A DNA stretch of 46,006 nucleotides from NCBI GenBank assembly GCA_000934665.2, contig JYFJ02003147.1, positions 1 through 46,006 of the forward strand, in the 5' to 3' direction. Shown here in pieces: positions 1-32,500 of the stretch. The notes beneath the pieces are model-generated. The model had not been told where the DNA came from. It saw only the letters and a program-made list of their open reading frames with translations, and ran no database searches. How positions within the stretch are numbered: position 1 is the first letter of the stretch; each line of letters opens with the position of its first letter. The stretch is from Catajapyx aquilonaris (lineage: Eukaryota). Position numbers and translations under genes: made by a program.

Positions 1-551
1 GGCGGCCGCAAATATCGCCCCAGGAGAAAAATAAGCGCACCATCTCAAAGGGCAACCCTTTCGCGTCCAGATACTCCAGTTTCATGCCGATACCTCCCTA
101 TTTGCGGCCGTGACAGCGAGAGGAAGAAGTGTCAAACTCACGGGCCGGCCCGCGACGGGCTACCCGCAACAATGAATAGCGTAGCCTAGAGCGTGCTCTT
201 AAACTGCAAATCATCAAGAACTGAAAGAATTTATTTAATAGGCTACAGACTACGTGTACTGTACCATACGAGTATATACCTCGTGTAGGCTACAATTCAG
301 ACATTTTTGGAGTGTACCCTAAATAGCACTAGCAATAATGCACACTTTTGACCATCACTTTATATATACAAACGCTGAATTTTCCTCTCGCCCATAGGGT
401 TATGCATTATTGTAGTAGTTTCCAATGACGTGTTGTGCAAAAATACTGCATGTGACAACAACACCTACAATAATATTATATTATATGGTCTCAGATCTGC
501 ACCCCTATAGAGTATGGTGTATTGGTACTTACATATCAAACAGTACAATAC

Positions 552-5642: not shown

Positions 5643-8600
5643 TTAATTCGATCTAAATCCTCGCACAATTAACATATCTTCTCTGGATATCCTCTTGAGG
5701 TAATCTGTTAACTGGTTGATATCTTCATCTGACATGACATAAACTAAAATTTTGTCAAGAGTCGGGCTAGTGTCAATAAGGCGTTTCCAAGTCTCCACCG
5801 ACATGAATGCTTGCTGTCAGAACAAAGTTCGTCAGGTCACAATGAGAAGTGGACACCAATTAAAATATTGTTCATTGCGTTAATAAGTGATATACAAACC
5901 TGCTTCATATTAATAGCACGCAGATTCGGCATTGACTTTTGTTCCAAGAGGCTGTCCATGACTAGAGAAAAATCGAATTTATTGTCTTCCACTTCGATGC
6001 TGTCTGCAAATGCCCGCACTCCCAGGCCTAGAGTGGTGATTGTATCTGCACAGTTAGGCAGGAATATAGGTAGTACTGCAGAAGGCTGCCACCTGCAAAT
6101 CAGTAATTGCTTGGAATTTGCATTGCGTAGGTGCTATTATTTTACAGGTAGGCCTACTGCAGCTTACATGTATCCATGTATGCCCAATTCTCGTAACCGA
6201 CTAAATATGGGGTCAGAATATCCCAGGATGCCCTCGTCCTGATCTTGGTTTTGTTCGACATCCGCCTGAGTGTCCAGAGGGCGCTCCTCTCCCAAATCGT
6301 AAAAAACAAATTTCGTTAGAAATGGGCAGTATTTTCCTATTAGCTTCATATCTTCCGAAAAAGGAAGGATATCAATCTGGAACACCATTATGTCGGGTAT
6401 GGCTAAGCAGAGATTAGTTAGGTAGCAACCTGATAAGTGAATGAGAAAATATGCCTAATTTAGGTTTTTTTACAGCATGAATAATTCTATCACTAACATG
6501 TTCAAAATGAACACTAATTAGGTTTAGGAATAGTGTTTTCTAAACTATAATTACATTTATTACTGTACCACATACCTTTCACTTTGAGAAATTCTTGAAA
6601 TGGGGCTTCAAATGGATACGGTGCGTTTATAAAAGTGAGATTTTGTAGCTGGATAGAGCCGTTGACAAGTTCTTGGTATATTTCCATACCGCTATCGTGT
6701 GCGTACCTAGAGGCCTGCAAAATATGCAGGATAATTTTATTCAAATTTACTTTCAACTGATTTACCGTAGCAATATTATTAAATATTACTAATTGGCCTA
6801 CATTACCGTCGCTAGAACCTTCTTCAATCCGGGGCATAGTTTATTAAGTGCTGCAAAATGAGCAGGAGTAGCACCAAATATTTCAATCTCCGTCAAGCTA
6901 AGAGGCGGCAACGAGTCCACATTTTGAGCCAGAAGAGAGATTACATTTGAAAACAATCCGCTCACAGTGTGACAAAGTATTTCGATCGGCGTCTCTTGCA
7001 ACACACGCAATATAGCATCATTCCTGCCTGTTATGTCTTTCAGGATGCAGTTGCAGGACATCCTATAACATCTCCCGGGCTCCATGTCGAGCTTTTTCAG
7101 ATTTCTGCAAATTTTCAACTAACATGCATGCGTATACATTAATAGATATTGCGTTACTATAAGTGAAAGCGCACTTCTCACATCTAGTAATCCTTGAGGA
7201 GTTATGTATATGTCGCAAGGTCCCATCCCATCATCCGGTATGGGCATCGCGTAAGGCAGTGTAAGAGGGCTTATTGTAATTTCTTCAATGAGTGGACAAG
7301 ATTGAGCCAAGGCTTTTAAGATTGGGTCTGACATGCTGTAACATAAGGATGGCCACTTAATATAGTACTGTACACACGCTAATAACTCTTATGCACTTGC
7401 ATACTGTATGTGAGTGGCATTACAGCATGCTGGTGTACTAACGAGGTCAAAATGATGAAGATGATCAATATTGTCTCACTGCACTTATATCAATGCCATT
7501 TCAGTCAGGTGTCTGTTCCAATGATAAAATACAACCTAAAAAACCTAAAAACACCTGAAGTGCATGACATACACTTCGGCAAATTCTTGTTAGGCAACAA
7601 CATCAGTGGGAAATCCAAATAAGTTAGTAAGGTAATTGAGGCAGATTATGATGGAACATCTTCACATTTTATCCTCTGTAGTGCACAAGTTGGGAAATCA
7701 ATAAGGGTAGGAGCAGAATGTCGGATATATGAGAAATACTAACAAGTGAGACTGAACAGCTGACTCGCAAGATCAAGCATCAGTTTCCGGATTCAGTTTG
7801 TCAGTATTACTGTAGATGATAAAATCAGTAGCGGTATAAATAATAAAAGAGACCTCATACATCAGGAGAGAGTCATTTAATCTCAAAGGGACCAACATAC
7901 TGTCAAAAGGAACGTGACAACAAGGAAACAGACACTGCTATTCAGCTACTGCTATTATTTCAGTATGGTTTATAATCTATAACTATCAACTTCTGAGAGT
8001 CATAAGTAAACAAGCATAATTCACTCACCAATTTAGTGGAGTGTCGGTTGAGTTGCAAATTAGTAGATAGTAACATTCTCTTTTTATGCTTGTTTACTTA
8101 TGACTCTCAGAAAGATGTACGATACTTCCTACTGGAATGTTATGCATAACACGTGTTATGACAATTTATTGCATTACCTGCCGCTGATAAGGTTGACATA
8201 AGTGAGGTTTTGCAAGCGGGCAAATTGATCTGGCCAGAAGGAATAGTAGGGTGGAAGAGTAGTTTCAGAAGAATCTGGGTCTCTGTTGGTTTCTAATTTT
8301 GTCATCCCGTCATGTAAATACATGCACAATTTAAGTCGAACATCTTCCGTGGCTCTCCCTTCTCTAATATACATCCGTCCGTCACAGATCTGATCCAGGA
8401 GCTCAATCTGAGTACGCAATAACAATTATTCTTCTTAAACCTAAAGCTGACTAATGAGGTGTGCAGTCGAGCAGAAAAGCTTACTGTACGCTCATTATCC
8501 ACTTAAGTACATAAAGATAACATTTAGCAATTTCATACAGGCACTCTACAATAATTTATATGCACACTATTTTTTTATTTTCCTTAGTGTGTAATTATGC

Positions 8601-9633: not shown

Positions 9634-10805
9634 TCAAAGCTTGGAGTTTCTGGAGGAGAAGAAGTTCATAATTGCATTCATGCAGTCGTCAGAAGTACTT
9701 CTTTCAACCAGTCTCTCACACTCTTCGTCGTTAATCCGATGAAGAATGTCTTTTAGCTCATATCGCTGCAGTTCCTTTGCTATGATCATGCTCTGGAAAT
9801 ATATATGGTAACACACAAAATATTTCGTCAAGGATGTCATTGGATGATTATTGTTCTTACCTTCTTGGCATATGTAGAGTATTTTCTGAGACGAGGCCAT
9901 ACTTCTTGATGAAGAGTACTGTCTGGGAAAACTTCCGTGACCAGGCCCCAGTCACATGCTGTCTTAGCGCTAATTTTTCGATTGAAGCAGAGAAGTTCGC
10001 TAGCTTTGGCAAATCCCATCAAGCGGGGGAAAAGGTATGAAGAGCAACCTTCTGGGCTTTGTCCAAGGGCGCTGAATGGTGTGTAGAATATTGCCTAAAG
10101 AACATACATTCGAATTTTAATGTCCGATTGATATTGTTATTTTAGACAAGTAATAAAGAGGTGATGCATTTTATTAATCATGTGATTTCCTAAGCTTTAA
10201 CTTACTCTATCCGAGGCATAGACTAGGTCGAATAATCCCAAAATAGTAGTTCCAATGCCGATAGCAGGTCCATTAACAATTGCCACCAGAGGTTTTTTAA
10301 AGTCTATGAAGGCCTTCACAAACTTGCTGCCAAAGAATAATTAAATCACCAGCAGTGTTTCCTTCAGTAAGGATATATCATTACCGTCTCCCTGTAAAAA
10401 CAAAAGTGACACACACATCTGACTTACTTTACTAGACCCAATCCTTCCCTGGCCATGCCTTGAATCTGATCAAACGTCATATTCTCGGCTTGTGCAATTC
10501 TTGTGGTAAAATTGCTGAGGTCATTTCCGCTGGTGAAGTAATCACCTGCACCAGTTATGACAACAATAGAAGTATCGTCATCGTTTTCTGCTTCTAAAAG
10601 AGCCACGGGCACCTCTTTGAACATCTGCAGGAATAATCGACATATTATATAGCATTTCAGCAATGGAATGGTGTGATTTCCTATTACAGACCTCAGGAGT
10701 GCATGCATTTTTTCTTGTAGGCCGATTGAGTGTTATAACTGTTATCTTGCCATCTTGAGTTACCAACAATGTAGAATACTTTATTGAAGTGTAAGAGCCT
10801 GGCAT
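9634..10805 (-). CDS. ECI2: Enoyl-CoA delta isomerase 2-like (crotonase fold, peroxisomal), 5 coding exons
   Basis: Motifs [82 protein letters not shown]-terminal SKL (PTS1). Confidence 0.92.
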
Positions 10806-11131
10806 CCTTCTTTCGACAGAGTTTCGGAAGAAAGCCTTGAAAATAAAATAATGTATGGATCAAGTTTTTCGGGGTCCTTAAGAAGCGTCTGAAATATGCG
10901 CATTTATAATTTTTTCGAAGGGCACGTGCACTTGTGGTGTATTGTGATCTAGAACTTCTAGGGCTTCTGATAAAGTAGCGTTATCATCTGCTAACAGCCT
11001 TGGCGAGTATCCAAAGACGATAGCTTATTTGAATTGATAAAAACTAGAAGTAATCCACTAGAGAAAATGGTCATACAGTTCGATGCCTTTTCCGTTGATC
11101 ATTTTATGTGAAAACACAATGTCCAGGCTAA

Positions 11132-12647: not shown

Positions 12648-15600
12648 TCATTCCCCCTCTTCCTGGGCTATTTTCTGATCTGCCCTTTTTAATATGGCCC
12701 TCTCCAAGCGAAAATAGGAGCTGAGGATCTCTTTCATAGTCTGTCTGTCCACTCTGAGTATATCGGTAGTCGTCTTTGCCCAGTATGAGAATTTATGCGG
12801 TACATTGCTTCTAAGGCCTTGAATCTGAAGTTAGAAGAAATAGGTTATTTATTCAGAAGGGTTTCATATTTTCTAAGCCAACTCCATTATTTTATGATAA
12901 TATTATGCAGGATATACCCACTTCTCCAAACACGTCGTGTGGGAAGAGGACATTAACTTCAACTCGAGTTTCGGCTGCGAGCACTCCTACTGTCCCTCGG
13001 TGTACAAAGTATAAATTGTCATCTACTTCTCCAGCCTCTACTATTGAATATCCAGGCAGGTAAGGAACATGATGAACACTTACGCACAGTCTTCTCAAAA
13101 AGTTTTCATCAGCTCCTTGGAATAAGTAGGACTATAGCAGGAAGTTGAAAATAATTAATTGATACAGTATCACATTATGTGTTATGTAGTTATGTCACTT
13201 CAATTTCATGATTTCTGCAGTTGGCGGTGCATACAATACAGTAGGTATAGGCATAAGTTACTTATAAATTATACACCAACTCAGTGTTTGACTCCGGAAA
13301 TTATTATCTTGTGCATACCTGTTTTATTGTTTCGCCATATACGGCAAAACATAAGTCAGATCTCAGGCAATATGGGGTCCTTCGAAGGAATTCTGGTGTG
13401 ATTACTCCTTTGTTTTTGAACCAAAGGTAGGCAATATATGCTCGTAACTTTTTGGTACTTATATGAGATACTTTATGGTGCTTTAGCCGGTTCTGAAAAA
13501 TATCATAAATATGAGAATTTCAATTACTCTTTCTTGACATAATTATAAGTGTACAAAAATGAGAGAAATGAACATGAACCACGTCGGTCTGGTAACCAGA
13601 CGTATAATAATAAGAGCCTTTTAAAATTTATTATTTTGTCGTTCCCCTGATAGGCTTGCATGTTGAGACAGGTTGAGAGCTTAAGGTAGTTCTTGCGCTT
13701 GGAAACGGAGGGAAGGGGGAGGGGAGTTGAGCCTATGTTTATACATGGGGCGAGCTGGCCAATACCAACTTCTGCGATTGTAAGACATTTCTGCTAGTAT
13801 TTCTCTGAAACAGTGTTTTGAGTACGTGTTTCGCGTCGGATACGTTACGGGAACATTTATTTGGGGGATAATAATTCCCTCGTGCACTTTTGTCCCGGAG
13901 AAGAGCAGAAATATGGCTGTTCCAAATAGCGGAAAAAGTGCGGGAAATCCGGCAGCGTTGCATACGTTGGTAGCCCTTGTCAACAACGTATCGATGTTTC
14001 GATGTATCGATATTTCCCCCCAGCGATATATCGAGTTCTCGACCCCGATTATTACATCGATATTTTAATAAAATTACAGTGATTTGAGCTTATCAGACAT
14101 CGATATTTTATAAGTAAACCATCGATATATCGATATCAATACATCGATAGTCCCATCTCCCCCGCCCCATTCGAACGTGCCTCCTTTGCTGGTAACTTAG
14201 GTAACTGTCTAGTCGATCAATAACTTGAGACCAGAGACCAATCTCACATACTCAATCATACACAATCATACATAATCACACAGTACCGGACCGGCGTTTC
14301 ATTCAGAAACTCCACGGACAACACTTGCACTTCCCTTGTCAGTTACATGCCATTCTGAAACCTAGGCGGCTCGGGATTTTCAAATCCCGAGCGAAGGCCG
14401 CCAAGACGACCGTCGCTTACAGCGTTGCCACTTCGACGCCAACTGTAGAGTCGGCTGCTCACAAAATGACGATTTGCGGGGGAAGGACCATGGTGACCCC
14501 TATGAAAATCGCCACTAAATAAAACTCCCGACTTTCCCCCACATTAATATGGTTTTTTGTTAATATCTGAATATTTTTAAAGAAGCTAGGGACACTTTTC
14601 TCGAGGCCCGCAGACCGGCTCCCATAAGGCTCCATGCATAAGGGGCCGCCAGAAGCCCAACTTTGAAAATTAATATCTCACAAACGAGATAGACGAACCT
14701 CTTGAAACTTCACAGGAGTATGTGCGACATGCCCAGGAATGGATTGTGTGATTTTCACGAAATTGTCAATAAATGGACTTAGCGCAAGAAATACCTTAAA
14801 ATAATGATATTTGAATTTCTAGTACTTACCATAAGGCCACTAATTTTAATCTCGAAGTTTACTTTGGCGAAGTTTTGCAGCCCGGAAGTGATGTCACCAA
14901 GTACGACTCCAAACACAAATTTGGAACCCAGCATCGTTATGACAAGGTAAATCATTTCAGACCAGCACTTGGGGAGATGACACGCATCTCCGTATCCGGT
15001 AGTGGAAAAGGTCTCAATGACTTTGTACAGCTTCAAGCGATATTTTTCGAAAGGACCTGATGTTAACAGGTTTTGGCATTCTGAAAGTATCAGAAACATT
15101 AGGTGGCACCCTTAGGGCCGATTGTGTGATTGACAATTAAGAAATGAAATCTCCAATTATATTGAACTATGTACTATAAATACATATATACGTAACTTTT
15201 ACATTACTCACCTGCATGATCTCCGTAAAATTTCTGTTCTACTTTGATTTTGCATCGGAACAAGTAAAGGCCACAGGCAAAAAAATGGCAAAGCAGTGCC
15301 AGGGATATCAAGAGCCTCTTCGCTTTCAAGCTTATTAAGTTGATAAACAGTTTTTCTCCTCTTATCTCAAAGTATTTCCAGAAATGCAGCTGAAACAGAA
15401 GATAATTTGTCACAAGGTGTGGACTCTTTAGTGGATGATGACTTATTTTATCATGATGCTACTGAACTTACAACTCGTAATAAGCGAAGTACTTTGAACC
15501 ATGACCACAGTGGGCCCCAACTTTTGCTGCCGATAATAAAAGTGATCAATTCAAATGGTAAGGTAGACATTAAGTCCAAAATGAAGCCGAAATTGTCCTG

Positions 15601-18600
15601 CAAGTATCTGAACATCAGAAGATATTATTGGTCAGTTTTTAAGCTGCTCGGTATTTGTGTTCCAGAGAATTACCTTTCCTTGATTTTCTTCACATCTAGT
15701 ATTAAATCTCCCAATTCGTTGACAAAAGCAAGCTGAAAGCTGATACACATCTTGATCCAAAACACAGCATCTATTACAATCTCTATCCCATTTACGAGTC
15801 GGCTATTATCTTCGAAAGCGATGCGATAAGAAGTCATGAAACAGCTTAGTACGGCCGCGAATGTCACGAGCAAGCTGAACTGTATTAAGAGGGCTGACTC
15901 TGGATCCAGCACTTTTCCGTCGCTCCTGTGTTTGAAATAACTCATCAAGTGACGATGAAGAATGCCAAGAAGGCTTTTCTGGTTGTTATTGTACTTACCT
16001 CTCTTCAGATATGAAAGGTTCCCCCATAACTTTACTAGTTCGACGAATTATTCGTTGAAAGTACGTCTTTCGGGGTTCAAGTTCACTGATCTCCATGTCC
16101 AGAATTTCTTCATCGTGGCTTTCTGGATGTGTTGTCTTTTGCGCTGGTGATTCTTTCTTATTCTGTACGAAATATATTAGTCGGAAGATTGGTAAATTTG
16201 ATTGCTGATCCGGCCATAAAACTTCGGAGTAAAGAAATAAACATATTAAAAACTTGCCAGGGCACATAGAGCACTATTCTCTAGGTTTCTTCTGATGTCT
16301 GGAAACGAATTGAGTACACCCTGAAGTTCGTCCCTAGTTATCATGAAAGCATCTACATTGGAGCTGCAGACTATGTAAGCAGCTTCGTGCATTTGGGAAT
16401 ACATGGCCACTTCTCCAAAGAAACTGCCAAACTCGAGTGACCTCAGACGCACTCTATCCTGTGACTGCACTTCCAATAGACCTCGGTGAATAAAATACAT
16501 CTCATTGCCCACATCTTTGTACTGGTAAATCACTTCTCCTTTTAAGAAGTACACCGGTCTCAGCAGAACTGCAACGGATCTCAAAAAGCTTAAAGGAGCC
16601 TCTTGAAAGAATGGAACCTGCCAAACGTAAACAGTTTTTTATCTATCACCTATCGTGGTAGGCAGCTTATTTTATGTTTAGTTTACTAAAATTTTACAAC
16701 ACCTTTTTTATAGTATCTTCAAACAGGCTGAGGGCTACATCTTGTTCCAAAGCTGTATGCACGTTGGTGAAGAGGTGATGAAAATTAACGCCTCTTGTCC
16801 TGTGCCACTGATACTCGAAGTGGTTGTATACCCTCCTAAAAATAGTAACATTTTCCTCATTGTGTCTAAACATCACACTCTCGTCTGAGTGACTCGTTGG
16901 TTTCGCATAGAAATATATAAAGCAATACTCGCACCCTGATATTATAATACTTACTTTATCATAGTTGAATCAATACTTTCATTTTTTAAGAACTTAAGGA
17001 GTCTCTTGGTATTGTATTGATACATCAAGTGCTGCAGGTTGTAATGGCACTGGGAACTTGTAATGCTGGCAACTATGTAACCGAAAAGCAGAACTCCTAT
17101 GACAATCATACTGCAAGCCAGTATCATTTCGTCAGGGTCTTGAGGTGTGATGTCTCCGTACCCGACCAGTAGGAAAGTGGCAGTGACCCAGTATAGTGAG
17201 AGAGTGTACTTCTGAAACCATGTCCTTTTCTTATACATACCACCTGAAAAATTATCGCAGGAAAAATAATTTACTTGTCTCAGTTATATAACAGTGGAAA
17301 TATTAATCGTAACATGCCTGATGCTGACAGCCACTTGTTGAAATAACAATGATTAACATCCAAACACATTATATTTTGATCATGTTTCATCTTAAAGTTC
17401 TCGCAAGATGATGCGTCCTTGAAAACTCGGTGTTTTGTTACGTCTGTGACAGCGGAAGTGGGACACGCTTCCCAGAAGCAAAAGCAAGCCATAGCATTCA
17501 CCACTATTAAATATATCGGGATGAACTTGAGAACACTGGCGAAAAAATTTCAACTGTGATTATTGCAACCGCTTCGCTGTAGAAAAGGCATAGTAACACA
17601 TAGGACTACTGTTATGACTGCATCAAAAACAGTACACTCAATATAATTGAAAATGTTTCTTGCCAAAATACGGCATTTCATACATAAAAGATGTGTAAAA
17701 AATAAAGCCTGAGTCCTCTTTCCCTATACACAAAATAGGCATACTTGAATCTTGTGCAGAAAGCATTACTGTAAGAGCGTGGTCATATTTAAAAAAAAAT
17801 CCTAATCTGACTAGTTAAGATAACTGAAGTACAAAGGAAAGTAAAATGATTGCAAAATCTTACCGTATCACATTTGTCTTGAATAGAACTTCAGACTCGA
17901 AATTGGAAAAAGCTTCAATGACCAGGTAGAGCTGCGTGAGACGTAGCATTCGTATTAAACTCAGGTAAGCTGTTGTGCTGTTGGGTGTAATTAGTTGCGA
18001 CAAATCTTAATACACTAGGTGACCGAAGTAGTATAGACGTGAAGAGTGAGCATACTTACTCGAGTTTTTTGGTAAAATGTTGGATGATTATATCTATTGG
18101 GACACAACCTATAAAATCCACTAAGAAGGACCCTAGAAGGTAGTGTTTAGCAGTATACAATGGGTGACTCACAACCAAATTCTCTTTGTTGTAATACGCA
18201 GTGTGCAACCGAAGATACCTACAAAAGAATAAACGCGGTAAAAATATCTAAATAGTGAATAAAGTTCGTCCAGAAAGTACGCCACGCTGGTAAAGTAACT
18301 ATATACTTCCTGAATGGACATAATGACCATTAGCTATGATTAATCAACATACATGCTGATCATTCCAAATGTGTCAATCGTTAAGGTTATAATCCTTAGT
18401 TTATGGTGAAAGGCAGGGTACGTTTCTGTCATTGGAACAATCAGGGCATTGACCATAATTCCAGCGCATCTTATATATGTCCACCACTTCAAAAACTTCC
18501 CTCGGGGCATGATTGTAGTTCTTACCAAAAAATATCTGTGTAAAATAATTACAAAAAAGAAAACTTGTAAACAGACAGGCCCCTTTCATTTTGAGGTATC

Positions 18601-21600
18601 GGCGCACCTTATTACGCTGAATTTTCCCAGCTTCATGAAAGGAGCAAAAAAATCATCCATTTCATGAACATTTCGTAATTGTCCAGGCCTCTTGAACGAC
18701 TGCATTCCCAGTTTATCCTCGCACCACATACACAACTGCTTTCGTCCATAAGGTATCGGTTTTCCTTTGCCAGTCACACCTTCACTTAACTTCTGAAAGA
18801 GATGAAGCGAATAACAGTAAGCGTTTGAACGGCATCCGATTGTCTATTTGCTGGTCATACTCACCACCTTCGCAGATGTGCTGTCGATTACTGAGAGAAG
18901 CTGTTTTTTGAAGGATGGATATAAATTCAGAATGTTCCTGATATCCGTTGTCTTGATGAATGCCAGCTCGCAGTGGGATATCGTTTTGATGACTATGGGT
19001 GATGGCAACCCGTACAATGTGCTGAAGACGCCAAGAGTACTTCCAGGTCCTATGACTCCTAAGGTTCTGTCACCGCTTGGAGAAAATGTCTGTCGGCACA
19101 ATTTGTCATACATTAAAAAGGACACTGACGACTGACGGAGTGCAGTACTAAGTTGTAAGGCTTGTCTTTCTGACTTGTCAAATCAATGTGCATCGACACT
19201 TACCTCGCAATAACCTCGCCTAATCATGTACATTCCGGGTATCAGGTCATCAGAATACAAAACTATTTCATGAGGTGGTAGCATGAACACGTGGGACACT
19301 TTGGCAGCTGCCCTGGTGATTTCTTCAGGGACATGCTATCAAAAGAAAGTTTTACGCAATAATAGTCTGAGATCATTAAAAGCTAAATTAATATCCTACC
19401 ATAAATAGTTGCATAGATTTCAATGTATCCATGAGGGCTGCTTCTAGCACGCTCTCTTGCAGTGGAGAAGGGAGGTTGTTCAAAATGCGATTTGAGTTCG
19501 GGAGCGATAATCCCTGAGAATTTTCCCATTGCAGCTCAAAGTAAGATAGGATTCGTCGTATGAGATCTAGCCCTATGTAATTCTCCTGCATGAACTTTTT
19601 AATGGCAAACAGCTTTTTTTGAAACTTCACCCTGAAAGACAATGTTTCATTCCAAAGTACATTGGCAACCAAATTTTTTAATGTTAGAACCTACAGTATT
19701 TCATGACTAAACTTATACCTAAAATACTCTATATTATAAAATGATGTACTAACTTGTGTTCACCATCATTACTTAAAGTGGCGGCCACATGAGAAGCGAA
19801 GTGTCCAAAAAGTATTGTCCCTATGACCATCTCCAGACTGACGAACATGACTTCCCATGGGCCATAGGCCTTGATATCCCCAAATCCGCAGTTGGAAAGG
19901 ATAATGGTAGCAAAGTATAGAGACACCAAGTATTGGTTCTCAGCGTACCTCTTTCTTAGGTACTTATTACCTGCCTCTTCCTGCCTTTCTAACATAATTG
20001 TATACCAGGACCTCGGGATATAGTCTGTGCATTCTCTGCGGGAAGAGAGTTTCAGGAGGTGAATATAAACGCTCCTTAGTTCAATTGAGCGACTTGAATT
20101 TTCCTCCCATAAAATCCAGCGACTTCTTTAATGGATTAACTACAACACTAGGTAGGAACTGGCATGTTATTTTTAGATGCAACAGTATCATCTGAGGCAT
20201 GTGGAGCATTTGACAATGTAGTTCAAGTGAAGAAGTTGTATAGCAAAGAAAGAAACGCACTAATTATAAGTATGAACAATCAAGGCCGTATGCAACTGTC
20301 TGGACTGTTGCTTTTCCTTGTTTTGTGAATTTAAAATCCATAACTTTTTCTGTTGAACATAGGAATTGAGAAGCTCTGTGTTCGTGTACACTACAAGTTG
20401 TTCTAGTTCACTGAGGAAGCATTACCTTACATCCAGGCATGCAAACAAGTACGTGAGACAACCGAACCAGTGGCATGCGATGATAAAGTAAACGAATGTT
20501 TTCACCACTCGAACTGTCACTGTACTCATCCATATGTTGTCTTCAAGATTGGTAAACATGGCCTCAATCTGCAATGCAAAATGAAAGGAGATGCAAGCGG
20601 GGTACTGATCATATATGGCTGACACTGCCATGACATTTCAATGTGATTTATGCAAACTTTTAGGGTGAATTCCTTGACACTACAGGAATACTGTACTTTA
20701 TGTACGAGTATAGAGTCATAAAGGAATAATATTATTTGCTATCCGCAGCCTTTTTACTAAGGTTAATTAGCAATAATCAACAAATGCATTGTAACAGCTC
20801 CTATGGCGATGATCAGCTTACAAACCTTCTAACTCCTCGACTTTTGCCTATACGATACGTAATGGTGATTGCAAATTAAAATCGTATGGTAGCACCTACA
20901 TTTTTAAAATGCAAATGTCAAGGTCGCGTGGAGATATTTTACATGCTGGTTAATGGTTGCACAGAGTTCTCAGTTCTGGACCTCACATTAACTTTCCATT
21001 TCATATCCAGTACCATCATACAACCTTCTCCAAATACGAGTACAGCCCCTTCTTGCAAGACTTCCAATGTTTAAAGTACGGTACCGTATATTATCTTGTT
21101 TAGAAAATGTATGTAAAAATGATCATCGAGTGTTGAGAGGTTCACCATGGAAATTCTGAACCATTACCTAGATACTAATTATGGAGACTTACCTTAAAAA
21201 TTTTCACAAGTGGTATCCCTCTTAATACACGTCGTACTATTCTTTGATGGCTTTGTTGACTTAGGACGTATGAAACCACATAAAAAGGAAAGATGCTTAG
21301 TAAGTCCATCAATACTGTGTATGTTCTAAATTTGTGCTTCATAAGTTCTCTGAAATTCATCTTGTTTCCTAAGAAAAATGAATTTCATTAAGAGGTAGTG
21401 TTATTGACCATCGTTCTTTCCTATAGGCATCTTACCCATACAATCATACAATATCTTCACTTTATCTGAATCCCACCTGGGCCTCAGGATCACCCACCAT
21501 GATATCTGATTACGATATATTGTTCAGACATTGGGTTCAGAAAGACGCTGAGTGGTCATGCCTTGCTTGGATAATTTCCGAAGCTTCTTGTGTCATATGC

Positions 21601-24600
21601 ATGACATAATATTACGGAAATTTCTAGTTTCGACGACCTTCTTTTTTGACTTCAGTTATCGGGGTGGGTGATCCGGCGTAGGGTGCAGGCATTCAGATTT
21701 TTAAAAAATGCAAAATCAAAGCGTAAATTTGCATTCATATTACTTGTAAGATTACCGTAATATACTGTGCCTCATACTTAATTGTAGAAAATTGTACAAA
21801 AATCAGAGATATCCCACTTAATATTGACAACATAAAGTTGTGGCATCTTCCCCTGACTTGCACTATATTCTGCTCCTTAAAAAAATAGAGTTAAGGTTCT
21901 TACCATCCTGTACATCTGTGGGGTTCAAAACATCCATGATGAAATCCACCAAGTAGACAAAATCAATGATGTATAACTTTATGATGGCTTCTTTGGGCAA
22001 GGGACTGACAAACACCGCATAATAGGGAAACAGAAATACATGTGCGGTAATGACACCAAGCACAACCAGCCTTATGACCTTTGATAATGTTTGAATAATT
22101 TTCATTTTAAGATCTTGGAAATTCGTAAATGCCAGTATACTACCATCCTTCGAGAATGCTACCTAGAAGACAAAATGTTTATGAGTAATTATACGTAAGA
22201 AAGAGTGGAAATGCACACTTGCGGTCACCTCCTTAAACTTGTACATTCCTGAGTACGGAGATTTCTGAGATTCTGCGGGCTTGTGAAACATGAGAAACTT
22301 ACTTCCCAACGCTTTTTCCCTTCTTAGACGATTGGCAATTAATAACTGCGATAGCCTATTTCCTCTGAAATGAAAAAAATGTCAAATTACTACGGTTGAA
22401 AATAATGTTTAGTGCAACACACTCGTCATTTGTCAGAAAAATATCACTGATCTGGTTAAGGAGATTTCTTTGCAACAATGTGGGATGCAGGAAAGATGCC
22501 ATCCATATAACGAATAAGTGCTCACCCGTAATTCCTACTCTCTATGATTTTAGCGTAGTCTCTCTCTGCTTCCATGACTGATTCTGCAATCCACGTTAAT
22601 CTACCCTGAAGACAGGCATGTAATGCACTATTGATCACAAATATTTTTTAAAGCTCACTCATGTTCCACACATACCATAATAATGCGAGAAATAATCTCT
22701 TTGGCCTGAGGAAGCCGTTCTTCGGTTATGCACTTCATGTCTTGCTTACGCAACATGAGTACTCTGCATAGAGTTCTGGCCCTCACATTAGCTTTCCATT
22801 TCATATTATCCAGTACCATACAACCTTCTCCAAATACAGCCCCATCTTGCAAGATTCCCAAGGGCGTATCTAGATCATCATTGGTTACTATCTGCAACAG
22901 TCACTTTTTTTTAAATAAGATAAAGCAGCCAAAAAATCCATCTCACTCAACAACTGGTGGCTATTATTCTATTAACTTATTTCATGCCAAAAAGTGTATG
23001 GCAAATCTCTGCTGGAGCTACGTAATCACAAGAAATTTTGTTGACATAGAATATTGGCTATGCTTCACTACTGCCACTTGCCCACATGAGTGAGGTGAGC
23101 TGTTGATGTTGACTCGTACCTCGACTTCTCCGGATGTGATGTAGAATAAGCAATTCGCTGTCAGATTTTGATGGGTCAAGTATTCACCTGGCTGATAATA
23201 ACTATAAACGACGTGAACTGCTAGTAGAGACTTAGTCACCTCGTTCAAGTCTTTCAGCAACGGGGACTGAAATTTTGAATAATAAGGACAGTATTTAGTA
23301 GCAGCCATATTCCTTTGTTGCACAAACTATACTAGAGATTTGGTGAGAAAAAATATTGAGGATATCAGTGAAAGTATCAGTTTGAAATAGTTAATCCCAG
23401 TTTGAGGTACAAATCTCCAACTTACTGTGATTAAATTATAATGTTTTCTAGCCTATGAAATAATGGCTTCCTTACGCTACGGAGTAGGCCTTGGGCAAGT
23501 TCAGAGCATACTGCGGCTCTCATGGTCAATGGCAGCAAGTCAAGAAGTTCGTCGCTCTTGGTACTCTTGATCTTCCAACGATGTTCGTAGAATTTGGTGG
23601 TCTTGTTCACAATCTCTTTTGGCAACTCCAACCTTGTCTAGGACAAAAATTATTTGACTGACGGAATATTATCAATGTAAAAAGACAATAATGCAATTAA
23701 TTGCTTGATAAAAAGTAAATGAACAGGTGAAAATGTAGCCTAATAAATATTAAGCACTGGAGTGCAGAAGACATTTGGATTAAAATTTAGCCTATAAGAA
23801 CAATAATTACCTCCGAAGTATACGTACCAGGTATTCTTTGGCTTTTCTGGCTTGGAAAAAGAGTTTGGATCTGCATCTGTCACGTTGCTCCGAATTCAAG
23901 GACATGTAGCCCACCAACAGGCCGTACACTATTCCAAAGCCCAATATCATAACAATAATGGAGAACCATTCTTCTACTTTATTGGTAGGGTAGACGTCAC
24001 CAAGTCTACATGAGAAAAAAATGACCAGCATGATGCTTACCACATTCGAGATAAATTAATAATGACACTGCGAAGAGCAGCTTATAAGGAGCTGGGAGTT
24101 ACCCTGCCGTTGTAATGGTCGCTGTACTCCAATAGAGTGATGCGATGTATCTTTCATACATTGTATCAAATCCCATATCAGGACCGGTGTCATAGAATGT
24201 GCCCAACCAAGTATCGTTTTTTTCGCAAGTAGGGATGTGAATGTAAGTACGCTGAAAATTAAAAAGTATTAATCAAATTATCTAGCAATGCATAATTATC
24301 CATATTAAATAATTGATTAAAGTTACAATTAATTTAGATTTGTTTATTTATTATCCGTATAATTATAAATTAATTCGTTAAATTGAAATTAATTAATCGC
24401 AATGGTTCTATTCCTAAAGCCTGATATACATGGTAGTCAAAATGAGACGTCATCCGTATGTTATGGGAGTATAGTTTTACTGATTTGATTATGGAAATTT
24501 AAATAGGTTCAGATGGCTTATTGCTATTACACAGGTACTAACTTTTAAAAAAGAGAGCTTACTGCTCCCTAACCATCTCTAATGGAGGAGTGGTCTGAAT

Positions 24601-25847
24601 CAGCATGGTAGTCCCCAACAATTACGTTGGTGCTGACGAAACAAAAATTAATGCCACATTATCATTTCAATGGTATCTGAAATTACCGGACTTAAGAGAA
24701 CAAATGGTAATTTATAATCCTCCAGGCACATTTTTGACCACCATGCATAGCTGGGGATGTAACTTGTAAAACTCACTGGACAAGACAGGCAGTACCACAT
24801 GCACGTGACTCCATGAAGGACAACAAGTAAAATTATGGAGCAATATGTTTTTAAGAGGAAGACAGCGTCCACACCAAGTCTGTCTGCTTGTTCATCTGAG
24901 GGGAGGAAATGGTCGTAATTAATAAGATATTGGACAACACTCTCAAAGACTGGTGTAGTGGCAGGCAACTTACTGAGGATCTTAAAACACCGGCACATCC
25001 TCAAGATGCGGTTGAGTCGCAAATATACCGTAGTATTCCTAACTCTATAATCTGAGACTTCAGTTTCAACAATGAAGATATCCACAATTGTTACGGATAT
25101 GAAATCCAGAAGAAGATATTTAATATCTGTTCTTTCATTTTGAGACAACAGAGAATACTTCCCTCGCAGAATCATCTTCAACTGAGGCATCCTTTCGCGA
25201 GTCTCAATCACAACGTAAGCAATGTATGCCAAGTCACAGGTATACAGGATCACCTCGAGCCATAAGTAGCTGTTCATGTCCATGAAGACTCCGTACATCA
25301 CAATGGCGTAGGAGATGAGAGTAGTGAGCACCACCACATAACGCCATATGCTCATAGTCATAGAATCGTCCAGGTGGAGTTCATGAATCACCTTACCGGG
25401 GACAAAGACAGACGGCATCCTTGCATGCACTTTGCTCGTGAACCTACGCATATTCCTCATTAAGTTGGGGACGATGAGGCCAATACTTTCTCTAAATGCG
25501 TAGATTCGAGTGCGATTCATGGCGCTTGTGAGTGACCGAAAGTCCGTGACTTCATCCGTGCTGCAGATGCTTTGTGACGGTCGAATCTTGTTATACTTGC
25601 CAGAGTCAGTGGAGGATGATGGTATGGACAAACTGAGTCGATGTTGGAACCTGCCTGATGACGTGCTACTGCCCTCGCTCATCATGGACCCCTTCCTTTC
25701 CTTTCCAGTGTCAGTTCCTGGAGACGGAGTTGAGCTCGTCAACGGCTGTCTGGATTGTTCCGCTTGCCCCGATTGGTCTGGTGGTAGTTGGGCTTGAGAC
25801 GGGTGTATCTGGAGAAGTTGAGCTGCTTGTTTCTGGCACCTGGGCAT
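12648..25847 (-). CDS. CNGK: Single-chain four-repeat cyclic-nucleotide-binding-domain K+ channel (CNGK / tetraKCNG-like)
   Basis: Four successive units of S1-S6, pore, C-linker and CNBD. Pores: SLYWSTATITTAG|LGD (~24150-23995), SLYFATIILSNCGFGD (~19925-19875), SLYWVTATFLLVGYGD (~17200-17152), KLYKVIETFSTTGYGD (~15035-14987). CNBDs at ~23270-22680, ~19335-18870, ~16617-16260, ~13130-12700. Inter-repeat exons can be joined in frame. Stop TGA at 12650-12648 after ...IAQEEGE. Start tentative. Confidence 0.88.
13685..14795. mobile_element. Non-autonomous Kolobok-like DNA transposon in a channel-gene intron, containing an ATCGAT-rich hAT-like fragment (~13988-14158)
   Basis: TIR GGTAGTTCTTGCGCT / AGCGCAAGAAATACC (14/15), with TTAA at 13681-13684 and 14796-14799. 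Confidence 0.78.
20958..21070 (-). pseudogene. Degenerate intronic copy of part of the CNBD1 exon (source ~22765-22862)
   Basis: Shares ...CTCACATTA.CTTTCCATTTCATAT...CCAGTACCAT...ACAACCTTCTCCAAATAC...AGCCCC.TCTTGCAAGA... with the exon, with several indels. Confidence 0.85.
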
Positions 25848-26559: not shown

Positions 26560-29500
26560 ATGGAGGAGATTGTCGCCGGGGCGGAAGAGGAGGAGGAGGA
26601 AGAAGAGGAAGAGGAGCAGCTGATCCTACATGGCACTCCAAATGGGTCTCCATGTGGCCAGCAGGAGCAGGTGATGAGCCCAGAGGAGTGCAGGAAGTCA
26701 GCCAGGATCAGGCTGGCACTCAAGGAGGGGGATGCGGATGCACTCAGGGAGGCTGCCCTCACTCCTGGGGGACTCCTGGGGGACGACCTGAGGGAAGGAG
26801 CCTGGCCGCTGCTGCTCAGGATCAAGCCGGAGGATGTCCAGTCAGGGGGGCCCAAGCTGGAGGAGCTGGAGGATCACAAGGATTTCTCGCAGGTGTGCAG
26901 GGCTACCTGGGAGTTTTAAAACAATATATTTCAACCGAACAAATTTCATGCCGATTGGGTCTTGCTGCAGTCGAGGGATCATAAGATTGCACGAAGCTTG
27001 CATTTGAACCACCCCCGCCTCTTGATGACCTGGGGAGGGCATGTATGGGGTGCCACACACAGTGCAAGCAATATGATACAATGCTTTAGGCCACGAGGGG
27101 GATGCAATGTGTTATCCATTGCAACCAGTACCTCTTTCCCTGAAATCAAAAAGTGCGATCCTAGACAATGTGAATATAAGTTAACTTCTGCGTCCAATGA
27201 GGAGTTTAGTGCACATTGCCATTCTCTAGGAATTTATGAAAGGGTTTCTTTTATTGCAGTGTCACTAATACATGACTAGTGCTATCTTTTACATTCCTGG
27301 ATTTGGCATGAGTCACTTGTACCCACCTAGAGAAATTGATGCATTTTCCACAACAATTTTGCAGTTTGTTAACAGGCACTTTTAAGACAGTTATTGGCAG
27401 ATCTTGTGTTGTGGTGAAAAACTTGAAGAATCAGATACACCATAATACCCACTAATGTTATTAGCCATCTGCATTCACATCCCTTATGCATCTTGTCATC
27501 ATATGGCAGTTGAATGTGTTTATGAGCTGGTAATGAGCTAAATGGCAAGATCCTATTCCCAGCAGTTTTGAAGGTAGCAAGTATATAGTTGCTGCCTAAT
27601 AACAATTATGTAAGTGTTTCAATTGCAATTTTAACATTATTTCTTGATAGACAATTTAGTATTTCCTTAGGACAATTTTTGTTTGTCCATTCACTTGCCA
27701 CGAGAAGAAATTGCAGAGTTGCTCAGTCCATCGAATTGGGTGCAAATTGGGGGTCTTTTAAAACTTAATGTGGTTTGCCTTTTTATTTACTTATTAACGT
27801 CAAGATTTATTAGTACGGTACCTGTTTCGAGTACAGTAGAACCCAGATTATCTGTCACCCACGGGACTGGGGCATGGTCGGAACACGAAAAGGGTTCAGA
27901 TAATCCGAGGAGAAATGAAAACTTTAATGAAACACAAAAAACAAAAAGACGAAGTAACGTACAACATTATGGTTTTCTAAGAAATAGTGAAGTAGGCCTA
28001 TTTATCATTTACGTACTACTGTACTGTAAAGTCCGTTAAACGAAAGAATGATCTGACGTCATTGTTTTGTTTACCGACTCCTACTCTCCTATTCGCATAA
28101 GTCCAAACCTTTTCGGGTATACATACGCCCAAGGGGGTGAGGCGCCACAAAATTAGTCCCCTGTGTCGCTGGTTTTCTCGAAGAAACTGTGCTGGTACAT
28201 GTAATTCGAATGTCTAATTATCATGGGCAGCCCATGCGGCAGCTGCAGCGCTACACAAACTGCACATTTTGTTGTGAGAAGCAGTAGGGCCTGGCATGGT
28301 GGGCACTGCTTTCGGCATATGGATATCCAAAAAATGGTTCACACTTATGCGATTCGGAGAGTAGTCAATGGAAATCTGCCAAACGCACCTCTGGAACCTT
28401 CCTCTTTTCCTGTTTCCATGGAAATGCTCTCACACAACAATATGAGCAAACAATATTCTTTTTTGTTGACACTGTTTTGCTCATATTGTTGCATGAGGGC
28501 ATCTCCATGGAAACAGGAAAAGTGGAAGGTTCCAGACACGGCCTATTACTCAGGTCGCGCAACTTCCTCCCTCCATGAGTGAGCTTAGTTGGGCATGGCT
28601 TGGCGCTGTCGTCCTCCACAGAGCACAACTTTTACGTCACGTTTGGGTCACGTTCGGGTGGCTGTCTCTGCGACTTTCCCTACTCACCCAGCTGCATTGG
28701 AAAGAATTGTTCAGGTTGGTTCAGAAAAGCGTCCGCCCGAACATGGCCCTAAAAGTTGTGCTCTGTGGAGCGACGCCGGCGACAAATAGAACATTCTACA
28801 GTGGCGGTGGAACGGAACTAAGCCCATGCCGTTCCCTGTATGGCTAGATAGGGAGTTTCGGGGGGCTGGTTCCAGAGGTGCATTTGGCAAATTTCCGTTG
28901 ACTAGGAGTTGGTAAGCAAAACGATGCCGTCAGATCGTTCTTTTGTTTAACGGACTATATTTACAATTATTGAACTAAGGCAAAACAAATGCGTAGTATA
29001 TTCCTGTATTTCATGAGATAACATGTTTATTGCGAGATCGGGACAGTTGGATAAACTGAGGAGTCAGATAATCAGAGGTCGGATAATTCTACTGTATTTG
29101 AATTGGTGTTTCTAATGGTATATTTCATGAATTTTTATATGCAACAGTATTCGAATGCACTTTGGTGGCAATGGAAGTGAATACATTTTTGAAAGGATAG
29201 TGACATCCTATGTGTAATCACAGTGGTCTAGACCAGCGTTCTCAACCGGGGCTCTGTAAGGAATAGTGATGAATAGGCTGATCATATGTAAATGCATTTT
29301 TGAGTAATTAATTGTCAGGTCTAAAATAAAATAATTTTTATGTAGGGGTTTCATGAGACATAAATACTATATCAAGGGTTCCGCAAGGGTAAAAAGGTTG
29401 AGAAACACTGGTTTAGACAAAAGATGACTGTTAACATTTACTGTGATTCAGTGACATAGCAATAATAAAATTAATTTGAAAGAGGGGAGGTGTGGTGGCT

Positions 29501-32500
29501 GAGATGGTAACTTCTCAGCTTGCTGAGCTGAAGGTCCCAGGTTCGATCCCCGCCTGGGAGTTACCTTTCGCCTGCGTCAGGAGGGTCTCTGACCTGCACC
29601 TTGGAGGTGTCTGGCAACCTAACCTCCTGGGGAACAGCACATGACCCATTAATTTTATCAGTGTTAAGGCCATTTCACAAAAAAATGTCGCGCGGCAAAC
29701 GGCGCGACTTGCGGCAAATTTTTTATTTATATTTATTGTTGCCAATTGTTGGCAACAATAAATATAAATAAAAATTTGCCGCACGTCGCGCCGTTTGCCG
29801 CGCGACATTTTTTTTGTGAAATGGCCTTTACACTTGCACTCATGTTCCCTCCCCAAAAATCCCTATCCTTACCCTATTTCCCTGATTTCCCTGCAGTGGA
29901 GTTTGAAGTTAACGGACGATAGCTGAGAAAAAATGGTGGTATCCCACCCCCCTAAGAGAGCCACTGGCTCTATCACGGGGTATAACAAAAAAAAATCATT
30001 TGAAAGGAACACATTGGAGAGAAAACACACACCTTCTTGCCCTTTATACCTTGAATGTGTAGTAACATTTCAAGACCATCTGCCACTTACAGGAGATTGG
30101 TAGTAGTGCCCAATCAGAAATTATATTAAACCTCGTTTCTATCATACAGGTTGTCCTAGATGTGAACCGCTCATTGAAAAGGTTTCCTCCCGGGATTGAA
30201 GACACTCGGCGGATCGTTCTTCAGGACCAATTGACCCGCCTGATAATTCGAGTCCTCCATGCACACCCAGAGCTACACTATTATCAGGGGTACCACGACA
30301 TTGCAATCACCTTTCTGCTGGTAGTTGGTGAAGATGTGGGCTTCAAAATGGTGGAGGTCCTCTCCTTAACACACTTGCGTGACTTCATGGAACCAACAAT
30401 GGAAAGGACGACTCATTTATTAAATTACATTTATCCAATAATCAGGAGGGTCAGTCTGAAACTCCATGATTTTTTGGAAAGGTCAGTAATTCTATTTTTG
30501 TTCAGGTGCATTCCTTACGAAATTATTCTTATCATTGGGCTTAACTTTGTTGATTTACTTTCCTGCAATTGCAAACACACTTAAAAACTTTCAGCAATGA
30601 ATAAAATTGTAGAGCTCTGTGATAGAAAGAGACCTCTCAGTTTCATGCTAATTGGATTGGTGCCATTTTGTATTTTTGCTAGTGAGGGTTTAGCAAAAAA
30701 ATCCTGGTGACTTGTATTTACTTGTAAGGGACAGAATCATGCCCAAAGTTTGTCTTGGGCCGATTTACCAAGCAGTTTGGGTCCCTCAGGACAAATTTCT
30801 CTTTCCATGTTGGTTTGAGTTCTAGGCACACTACCGGACACTACCAGAGTAAGATAACTTTTGGCATTTTAAAATGGCTACATGGTCAACTGTCAATGAA
30901 ACTCACATTAATCATCAGTCTGATGGTGCCCTATGAATTAGTACTTGTAAGACTGGGAAACCTTCAGGAGCCCTGCCAGAGGCCAACCAGTGACACCCTA
31001 TTGGCCATGACAGGCAAAGGCCACACCTTCAGCGATGCATGTGTGGCGTGCCTTGGAGTGGGGACACCATAATGAAACCAAACAGACTTAAAATTGTCAA
31101 TGTGAGTTAAATTTTGGCCAGGATAAATTGAAGAAGTTACAGAGAAGCCCTTCATTCTGAAATCTGAAGTTCATTGTTAACTGTCTTTCTTTGTGAGGCT
31201 TTTCCTATCAGGGACAAACACTGGAAAATTTTCTCAGAAAAATGAAACTGCACTAATGTAAGTTACTTTGTGGAGAAGTAATCAACTTGAACTGAAAGAT
31301 TTTCGTATACGATATGCTGCTGGTGGAGCACATCTGATGCCTGCCTTTTAGTATTAAAATGCTCTTGGTCCTTGGCAAAGACACAAAGTGGCATTTATTT
31401 GAAAGCCTTTTGCTCAGTATGAGCAATTATATTTAGCCTCAATTGCATGATCCAGAGCAGCCCCCCACAACTCCCAGTCTAGCCAGGTCTGGTACATAAT
31501 ACCTAAATCCATAATCCTGACATCCCAAAATACCTACCGCCGAAATACCTAACTGAAAAAATGCCGAGACCGCCGAAATACCTAATCTGGAAAATAACGA
31601 CACCACAGAAATACCTATTTCCGTACAAACACTTGGAGGAAAAGATGATGCTGACCTACTCTCCGAACCTTGACGATGCTCTCTTCTCGGCCTACCAATA
31701 ACATATGTCTCTTCAAAATATTTGAGTAAACCATTCGCTTCTTCAGGAAACTTATGCTTCAATTCTACAAAAGCTTTCGGAATATCACTACAAGGTAAAT
31801 ATGCTAGGCAACTAACTGTCGCACTAACAGGCAAAACTCTTTGTCACACCATACTTCTGTTGCAATCCTTCCCCTTGTATCTTATGCCAAATATTTTGGC
31901 CCAAATGAAACAAACAACCTCGACTTTGACTACTGCGATATTCCTGCTTAATGGCCAACATCGCACCCATCTCGAAATCAGTTATGATAACGTCTGGGTT
32001 CAATTCCAACCTTACAAACAAATTCACAAATCATTCAAACGGGTGTGCATTATTTTGTTACATGCGTCCGTATCGGTATTTCATCTATTAGGTATTTTGG
32101 CGGTGTCGTTATTTCTTCTATTAGGTATTTTGGTATGTCGGTATTTTCCAATGAAGTAGTTCGGCGGTGTCGGTATTTCGTGTCTTAGGTATTTCGCCTG
32201 TCGGTATTTTCATCCGTCAGTATTACGTCCGTAGACTATTACACACGGGCCCGGTCTAGCCTTATGATGACGGTAGTGTAATTAGAGTGTCTCCTCCAGC
32301 CTGGAATTTGATGCTGCATGGCCCCACAGGCATCTTATGATTCGAGTGGCTGACTAGAGTTCTGCGAATGCCCCCTAGACCCAGCGGCAGTGGAAAGGAT
32401 GGTTTGGGTTGGTTCACGTGTCCGCCCGAATCATAGATGCCTGTGGGCGCCAAATTCCAGGTTGGCTGGGAGTCTCTAATTACACTGCATATTGCGGGAG

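Follow-up and report, generated by a model that had tools for sequence, protein, structure and literature searches.

A probable pancrustacean orthologue of the pseudotetrameric CNGK potassium channel, with the phosphate-binding arginine replaced in all four cyclic nucleotide-binding domains

Introduction

The potassium channel CNGK allows sea-urchin sperm to respond to a single molecule of chemoattractant. In the channel of Arbacia punctulata, ApCNGK (also called Sp-tetraKCNG), a single chain carries four repeats, each comprising six transmembrane segments (6TM) with a pore, a C-linker and one cyclic nucleotide-binding domain (CNBD). Here we describe a gene with the same predicted organisation in contig JYFJ02003147.1 of Catajapyx aquilonaris (assembly GCA_000934665.2), where it lies on the minus strand at 25847-12648 of the whole stretch of DNA analysed (46,006 nucleotides, hereafter the window). 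Taken as a whole, the evidence is best explained if this gene is a pancrustacean orthologue of the pseudotetrameric CNGK (tetraKCNG) K+ channel, a reading that we consider probable. The same 6TM, pore, C-linker and CNBD module is found in HCN, CNGA and bacterial SthK channels, for which structures have been solved, but these have one module per chain and are assembled as tetramers, whereas the window gene is predicted to encode four diverged modules fused together.

In the excerpts of the published work considered here, ApCNGK is described as opened by one cGMP at its third CNBD, and the phosphate-binding arginine of the CNBD as crucial for nucleotide binding (PMC4749565). The same source describes the zebrafish channel DrCNGK as gated by intracellular pH and not by nucleotides, reports a 42-residue C-linker insert in repeat 3 of fish CNGK, and gives the K+-channel signature G-Y-G or G-F-G as a feature of CNGK pores (PMC4749565). 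CNGK has been reported for choanoflagellate, sponge, cnidarian, deuterostome invertebrates and fish, no arthropod being named in the excerpts concerned (PMC4749565, PMC6660944, PMC6259924, PMC8835908); molluscs are placed there among the chemotactic marine groups, most of which conserve CNGK (PMC6660944).

Gene model and domain content

The window is eukaryotic DNA with a G+C content of about 40%, and its minus strand holds between 25949 and 12648 a long run of open frames readable as channel segments. Frame-keeping pairs of donor and acceptor sites were enumerated between adjacent frames, and the choice among them was guided by the quality of the splice sites and by how well they fitted homologues without gaps. 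The resulting model chains 31 exons (6771 nt, 2256 codons) without an internal stop, from an ATG at 25847, the first methionine of its open frame, to a stop codon at 12650-12648 on the minus strand. Its predicted introns are of the GT-AG type in 28 cases and of the GC-AG type in two, with GC donors after 17318 and after 16258. The predicted exons are as follows.

Exon 1, 24777..25847, minus strand: ATG, low-complexity N-terminus of about 150 aa, repeat 1 S1-S5 (segments assigned by eye and by alignment); Ion_trans 22.5 bits
Exon 2, 24103..24251, minus strand: repeat 1 turret and pore helix
Exon 3, 23828..24005, minus strand: repeat 1 filter T-A-G-L-G-D (spanning the 24103/24005 junction), S6, start of C-linker
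Exon 4, 23476..23637, minus strand: repeat 1 C-linker
Exon 5, 23120..23266, minus strand: repeat 1 CNBD, first half; cNMP_binding 23.9 bits; joins exon 6 gap-free against ApCNGK repeat 1
Exon 6, 22676..22891, minus strand: repeat 1 CNBD, second half; phosphate-binding Arg replaced by Trp; cNMP_binding 31.7 bits
Exon 7, 22526..22605, minus strand: repeat 1-2 linker; 22583 an alternative acceptor
Exon 8, 22229..22364, minus strand: repeat 1-2 linker
Exon 9, 21904..22162, minus strand: repeat 2 S1-S2
Exon 10, 21193..21368, minus strand: repeat 2 S3-S4
Exon 11, 20426..20568, minus strand: repeat 2 S5
Exon 12, 19754..20035, minus strand: repeat 2 pore C-G-F-G-D and S6; Ion_trans_2 36.1 bits
Exon 13, 19400..19631, minus strand: repeat 2 C-linker
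Exon 14, 19204..19335, minus strand: repeat 2 CNBD, first half
Exon 15, 18865..19089, minus strand: repeat 2 CNBD, second half; Ser at the Arg position, L-G-V for F-G-E; cNMP_binding 21.8 bits
Exon 16, 18608..18792, minus strand: repeat 2-3 linker
Exon 17, 18353..18535, minus strand: repeat 3 S1
Exon 18, 18060..18218, minus strand: repeat 3 S2-S3
Exon 19, 17864..17977, minus strand: repeat 3 S4
Exon 20, 17318..17535, minus strand: repeat 3 S5 and long turret; GC donor
Exon 21, 16955..17243, minus strand: repeat 3 pore V-G-Y-G-D, S6, start of C-linker; Ion_trans_2 43 bits, Ion_trans 36.1 bits
Exon 22, 16703..16835, minus strand: repeat 3 C-linker
Exon 23, 16258..16617, minus strand: entire repeat 3 CNBD; F-G-E kept, Glu-Ala for the Arg-Thr of ApCNGK; cNMP_binding 49.3 bits, E 4.9e-13; GC donor
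Exon 24, 15999..16162, minus strand: repeat 3-4 linker
Exon 25, 15674..15925, minus strand: repeat 4 S1-S2
Exon 26, 15472..15607, minus strand: repeat 4 S3-S4
Exon 27, 15212..15389, minus strand: repeat 4 S5
Exon 28, 14830..15080, minus strand: repeat 4 pore T-G-Y-G-D and S6; only a weak IRK match in Pfam (16.9 bits, below cut-off)
Exon 29, 13319..13492, minus strand: repeat 4 C-linker; preceded by the longest intron, 1337 nt
Exon 30, 12922..13131, minus strand: repeat 4 CNBD, first half; cNMP_binding 32.7 bits
Exon 31, 12648..12824, minus strand: repeat 4 CNBD, second half; Arg replaced by His; one-residue insertion and H-x-F-S-Y; stop codon

A profile of one repeat matched the predicted protein as four full-length units (aa 152-702, 724-1245, 1258-1794 and 1791-2256). 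At the level of gene prediction, four homologous 6TM pore modules are joined in one polypeptide, as in CNGK, and not made as one 6TM-CNBD module per product, as in HCN, CNG and KCNH channels. A set of 27 stop-to-stop exon frames was also scanned against Pfam, with gathering cut-offs of 27.5 bits for cNMP_binding and 25 bits for Ion_trans. The cNMP_binding family (PF00027) matched five of them, with at least one match per repeat, three above the cut-off and two below it: 23021-23326 (23.9 bits, below) and 22658-22900 (31.7 bits) in repeat 1, 18847-19182 (21.8 bits, below) in repeat 2, 16249-16638 (49.3 bits) in repeat 3 and 12895-13131 (32.7 bits) in repeat 4. Ion_trans_2 exceeded its cut-off in two frames, 19732-20127 (repeat 2 pore) and 16954-17283 (repeat 3 pore), while Ion_trans in the exon 1 frame fell slightly short of its own (22.5 bits). 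No Pfam match was obtained for 17 of these 27 short frames, and the sub-threshold matches included Tis1_ImmP at 16697-16969, taken as chance, and IRK (16.9 bits) in the repeat 4 pore frame. As in CNGK, a C-linker and a CNBD follow S6 in every repeat; PF00027 matches in all four repeats, though below cut-off in repeat 2, and the CNBDs were also aligned. Scan and repeat profile together bear out the original prediction, made from the DNA letters alone, of four pore and CNBD modules in one orientation across 25847-12648 of the minus strand.

The linker exons then proposed proved correct or close to correct. Those at 22364-22229 and 16162-15999 recur unchanged in the model, and one placed from 22163 begins at 22162. 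An exon at 22583-22528 is retained, but with its ends better set at 22605-22526: no GT follows 22528, and 22583 is a possible alternative acceptor. The exon at 18792-18616 keeps its start, while its end is better placed at 18608; there is a GT after 18616, for which the sole in-frame acceptor would leave an intron of 33 nt. For exon 15 the acceptor 19131 was rejected, as 19089 aligns gap-free to barnacle and sea-urchin repeat 2. For exon 1 the donor 24687 is less likely than 24777 (GTGAGT) on turret length: with 24777 the span from S5 to the filter in repeat 1 is 70 aa, against 48-76 aa in the other repeat 1 units displayed. The corresponding span of repeat 3 is 95 aa, compared with 61-73 aa in the other three repeats of the window and with the same 48-76 aa in the repeat 1 rows. 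The GC donor at 17318 is alone in frame with the one strong acceptor, 17243; GT alternatives were rejected because they need poor acceptors, though every one of them leaves the frame open.

The region is very probably one CNGK-family gene, judging from its predicted exons and their homologues, and a single transcript would then run across all four repeats.

Relationship to CNGK channels

An exhaustive HMMER comparison of the repeat 3 CNBD exon with 1.84 billion representative sequences gave 6546 matching proteins at E <= 0.001, of which 39 reached E <= 1e-30; the 150 best of the 6546 included many proteins about 2000-2400 aa long in which four stretches matched. Names were obtained from cluster look-ups for 30 of these 150 best matches. 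One cluster member was the Arbacia punctulata 'cNMP-gated potassium channel' QKM75728.1 (2242 aa, P0309), which is ApCNGK itself; another relative was a cyprinid 'Cyclic nucleotide-gated potassium channel' (A0A673L3B5, P0043), and further named relatives were proteins of Branchiostoma, Anneissia, Lingula, Tubulanus, Montipora and Nematostella. The arthropod relatives, all labelled 'uncharacterized', came from Pollicipes (two proteins), Bombyx, Ostrinia, Nicrophorus, Onthophagus and Aquatica. A language-model look-up of one further relative, P0079, led to two Atlas clusters (61 and 85 members of about 1930-1970 aa) whose members of known phylum are mostly arthropod, which is a lead only. A word-indexed homologue search gave no match at E <= 0.001 for the repeat 1 transmembrane exon among 1073 candidates (proteins of up to 2000 aa), and none for the repeat 3 pore exon among 84 candidates.

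The relationship extends over essentially the whole spliced model. In BLASTP comparisons it aligned to the crinoid protein P0151 as one colinear stretch (model 354-2235 to 2-1912; 736 bits, 26.5% identity), and colinear alignments were likewise obtained with Bombyx P0101 (298-2248 to 183-2167; 24.5% identity), amphioxus P0024 (167-2221 to 49-2111; 24.3%) and cyprinid P0043 (157-2184 to 11-2031; 22%). For the repeat 3 CNBD taken singly, tblastn against CNGK repeat 3 domains gave 95-102 bits; phmmer against the PDB gave 62 bits for PKG, 58 for SthK, 56.5 for sea-urchin HCN and 48 for HCN3, and the PDB matches listed included no CNGK chain.

A tree was built by quick search under LG+C20 PMSF from 73 single repeats of 19 proteins, a set of CNGK-type sequences that contains no HCN, CNG or KCNH sequences. 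Each window repeat fell in the CNGK repeat clade of the same number (SH-aLRT 84, 87, 99 and 89 for repeats 1 to 4), and forcing the four window repeats together made the tree 212.8 log-likelihood units worse, with a p-value of 3.7e-8 in the approximately unbiased (AU) test. Pairwise identities tell much the same story: against ApCNGK each window repeat is most similar to its own counterpart (24.3, 25.5, 30.6 and 26.7% for repeats 1 to 4), as it is against Bombyx and P0079, although against Lingula this narrowly fails for repeats 1 and 4. On the evidence of these sequence comparisons, each repeat of the window gene is orthologous to the CNGK repeat of the same number, as descent from an ancient fusion would require. 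The original prediction had named the grouping of the repeats as recent tandem duplicates as an outcome that would overturn it, and the AU test went the other way; by colinear alignment, repeat-by-repeat grouping and that test, both the CNGK/tetraKCNG architecture and membership of the family by descent are upheld. The likeness to ApCNGK covers the single chain of four 6TM, pore, C-linker and CNBD repeats, the length (2242 aa against 2256 aa), repeat-by-repeat orthology and, in repeats 2-4, the K+-channel filter signature, while identity per repeat is only 24-31%.

Placement of the gene among arthropods

The window also contains a TBC1D20 gene, whose exon has its best named matches (among 120 listed of 1154) in crustaceans (65-69% identity), with insects at about 58-66% and molluscs at about 61-68%. 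In a tree of the stitched window protein with 40 named proteins picked from the best 120 matches, it fell within Pancrustacea (support 100) but outside the 17 insects sampled (100), the eight malacostracans (100) and the two copepods (96), in a polytomy with Malacostraca and insects. The earlier suggestion of an arthropod genome, drawn from neighbouring genes, is therefore confirmed by tree and matches and narrowed to a pancrustacean one.

In the repeat tree the window is sister to Bombyx, Ostrinia and P0079 in all four repeat clades (95, 93, 94 and 99), with Pollicipes next outward (96, 86 and 93), Pollicipes repeat 1 having been left out as too short. In a tree of 19 full-length proteins the arthropods branch in the order Pollicipes, window, insects, with three beetles among the last (supports 99, 100 and 99). 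Independent support for the sister grouping comes from the repeat 4 CNBD, where a one-residue insertion and the motif H-x-F-S-Y are common to the window and the three rows of the insect clade. The insect proteins concerned are those of Bombyx mori (XP_037867571.1, 2172 aa), Ostrinia furnacalis (XP_028158356.1), Nicrophorus (XP_017785399.1), Onthophagus (XP_022919369) and Aquatica (KAK4879766.1); they form the closest clade and share with the window the loss of the repeat 3 arginine described below, but identity is only about 24.5% and the window lies outside their clade (99). The two proteins of the barnacle Pollicipes pollicipes (XP_037081197.1, 2046 aa, and XP_037085638.1, 1657 aa) belong with the window to an arthropod CNGK clade (99), and show the highest identity to it across repeats 2-3, 29%; unlike the window they keep P-R-T in the repeat 3 CNBD and have an altered repeat 3 filter. 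In both barnacle models repeats 1 and 4 appear to be incomplete.

It had been proposed that the gene might represent an undescribed lineage of sperm channel. Predicted four-repeat orthologues from insects and a barnacle are in fact already present in public annotation, so that this part of the proposal is weakened; no paper characterising them was found, and literature searches (supplements lying outside their scope) returned no description of an arthropod CNGK. The accompanying warning that annotation splits or mislabels such genes is well illustrated: in Lingula (P0103/P0307) a fragment of a 2182-aa CNGK-like protein is labelled 'potassium voltage-gated channel subfamily H member 6, partial', and in Branchiostoma (P0153) an older model is a 277-aa piece of a four-repeat CNGK-type protein.

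Selectivity filters and cyclic nucleotide-binding domains

The four pore-forming units would all come from one predicted polypeptide, in which a C-linker and a CNBD-type domain follow each of them. All four filters keep G-x-G-D: T-A-G-L-G-D in repeat 1, C-G-F-G-D in repeat 2, V-G-Y-G-D in repeat 3 and T-G-Y-G-D in repeat 4. Repeats 2-4 therefore have the G-Y-G or G-F-G signature of K+ channels and repeat 1 has G-L-G-D, whereas ApCNGK has G-Y-G-D in all four. The S4 segments carry the usual spaced basic residues, above all in repeat 1. Because the four G-x-G-D filters are kept, the most likely activity is a K+-selective, hyperpolarising conductance; K+ selectivity itself is likely from the filter sequences. 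The site of action would most plausibly be sperm, by homology with CNGK of sea urchin, ascidian and zebrafish, although we rate expression there no higher than evenly balanced, and a hyperpolarising role in sperm would follow by analogy with these channels. In the lepidopteran CNGK-like proteins the filters are badly degraded, in two repeats in Bombyx (P0101) and in all four in Ostrinia (P0138), where repeats 2-4 have no G-x-G-D; either these proteins have lost K+ selectivity or the gene models are poor.

The CNBDs also depart from ApCNGK. In two differently made alignments, the column of the phosphate-binding arginine holds Trp, Ser, Glu and His in window repeats 1 to 4, where the same and the following residue in ApCNGK are Arg-Thr, Arg-Thr, Arg-Thr and Arg-Arg. 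The positions lie within a single exon in each of repeats 1-3 and within exon 31 in repeat 4, and are independent of the choice of junctions. ApCNGK thus has the arginine in all four CNBDs, with P-R-T-A-S-I-R in its cGMP-sensing repeat 3, and the window protein has it in none; the Arg-Thr expected of a nucleotide-competent repeat 3 CNBD is replaced by Glu-Ala, which lowers the likelihood that the channel works like ApCNGK but not that it descends from the same family. The F-G-E motif is retained in repeats 1, 3 and 4 and degraded to L-G-V in repeat 2. Within the repeat 3 clade the arginine is kept in 11 of 16 rows, including both barnacle proteins, and is missing from the window, Bombyx, Ostrinia, P0079 and the cyprinid.

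Since none of the four repeats, repeat 3 among them, has kept the arginine, opening by canonical binding of cGMP or cAMP is doubtful, and the balance of the sequence evidence tips slightly towards a loss of canonical cyclic-nucleotide gating. A likelier role for the CNBDs would be that of gating rings which are structural or regulated in some other way, as they are in zebrafish CNGK with its pH gating. Fish CNGK, which also has four repeats and lacks Arg-Thr in repeat 3 (Lys-Ala in cyprinid P0043), is the best functional analogue, and gating of the window protein by pH could be proposed by that analogy; identity to the cyprinid protein is only 22%, however, and the losses of Arg-Thr are independent events in different lineages. 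It is tempting to suggest, though only tentatively, that the clade of window and insects lost the arginines of repeat 3 and of all the other CNBDs after the split from barnacles, and that gating was switched to intracellular pH, voltage or another ligand.

Alternative explanations

Several observations weigh against the interpretation of the gene as a K+-selective CNGK orthologue that is no longer opened canonically by nucleotides. All junctions are predicted and they were partly picked to hold the frame open, so that this frame cannot by itself prove a single transcript, which is inferred; two junctions require GC donors (17318 and 16258). Divergence is strong, at 22-29% identity wherever named CNGK-type proteins align colinearly over a long stretch, and the end branches in the repeat tree are long (1.2-2.1). 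A closer relationship to CNGK than to HCN would rest on colinearity, on repeat orthology and, as a rough guide, on the repeat 3 CNBD scores, which are not strictly comparable between tblastn and phmmer. The sister position of window and insects could partly reflect long-branch attraction, as the tree program flagged long branches meeting, and in the full-length tree the cyprinid falls next to the arthropods (98), a placement that has to be artefactual. Lastly, the repeat 1 filter has Leu instead of Tyr or Phe, and the F-G-E kept in three repeats means that some ligand binding is possible.

The alternative that survives best, unlikely as we judge it, is a canonical channel of the sea-urchin type, that is, a sperm flagellar K+ channel opened by cGMP from a chemoattractant-receptor guanylyl cyclase. 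The gene belongs to the same family and shares its architecture, F-G-E persists in repeats 1, 3 and 4, and as the barnacle retains P-R-T in repeat 3 the arthropod ancestor probably had it too; but the arginine is absent from all four window repeats, and its replacement in repeat 3 by Glu also counts against nucleotide opening, Arg to Glu at this position being a standard means of abolishing cAMP binding in HCN2. The repeat 3 Arg-Thr has moreover been lost in the sister insects and in the cyprinid, whose zebrafish relative is described, in the excerpt considered, as ignoring nucleotides (PMC4749565).

We hold it very improbable that the gene is a decaying or non-functional remnant of CNGK, on its way to becoming a unitary pseudogene in a lineage for which the channel is dispensable. 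Such decay could account for the long branches, the degenerate CNBDs, the atypical repeat 1 filter, the two GC donors and a stray exon fragment in intron 10, and the filters of the lepidopteran relatives are badly degraded; it sits poorly with 2256 codons in 31 exons free of stops and frameshifts, with G-x-G-D in all four filters, with exons that join gap-free against homologues, and with the retained C-linkers and S4 charge pattern.

That the region holds four separate genes for tandem single-repeat HCN-, EAG- or CNG-like subunits, or recent duplicates, is scarcely credible: read-through of the exon 6 donor meets a stop after six codons, so that a shorter product is formally possible, but the repeats are only 15-20% identical to one another (which also rules out a duplication in the assembly) and each nevertheless has its orthologue in the repeat of the same number in single-chain CNGK, the tree with all four in one clade is rejected (p-AU 3.7e-8), and the gaps from CNBD to the next S1 are only 330-514 nt and contain in-frame linker exons with good splice sites.

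Other features of the window

Within intron 10, and outside the model, positions 20942-21070 of the minus strand hold a partial copy, of about 110 nt, of the middle of exon 6 (the repeat 1 CNBD core). It lies 1800 nt downstream as a direct repeat, with a 66-nt core that is 85% identical, indels, and no similarity in the flanks, and is probably a dead exon fragment. Intron 28 (14830-13492), like the TBC1D20 introns (27000-30000 and 30600-32700), has long open frames without a family match, possibly remnants of mobile elements.

The channel gene (start 25847, minus strand) and TBC1D20 (start about 26560, plus strand) are arranged head to head, with their predicted starts about 710 bp apart, an arrangement that suggests a shared or bidirectional promoter region. 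Other features recognised in the window are as follows.

465-917, minus strand: exon for an HSF-type DNA-binding domain, 52.5 bits
2732: a single N
6164-8425, minus strand: run of open frames without a Pfam match, leucine-rich by eye
9634-10859, minus strand: enoyl-CoA hydratase/isomerase exons, 41.7 and 25.3 bits
34362-37664 and 39410-41260, minus strand: two tandem genes resembling LCAT/phospholipase A2 group XV; Pfam LCAT 137.5 and 64.4 bits in the first copy, 85.2, 32.9 and 26.8 bits in the second
45150-45800: long simple repeats yielding poly-Ile/Leu/Val frames

Implications

The window gene and the unnamed insect and barnacle predictions indicate that the CNGK family persists in arthropods, whose fertilisation biology differs strongly. 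They also carry a warning for annotation, in that relatives of CNGK are labelled 'uncharacterized' or mislabelled as KCNH fragments. The loss of the repeat 3 arginine, common to the insects but not to the barnacles, offers a concrete instance, open to test, of a 'cyclic-nucleotide-gated' channel that alters the stimulus gating it; zebrafish supplied the first. If the loss did follow the split from barnacles, then a single-molecule cGMP detector of broadcast-spawned sperm would have become an otherwise-gated K+ channel, in parallel to but independently of freshwater fish; the switch might accompany a shift to internal or spermatophore fertilisation, and of this clade the window protein would be the member best preserved, all four of its G-x-G-D filters being intact.

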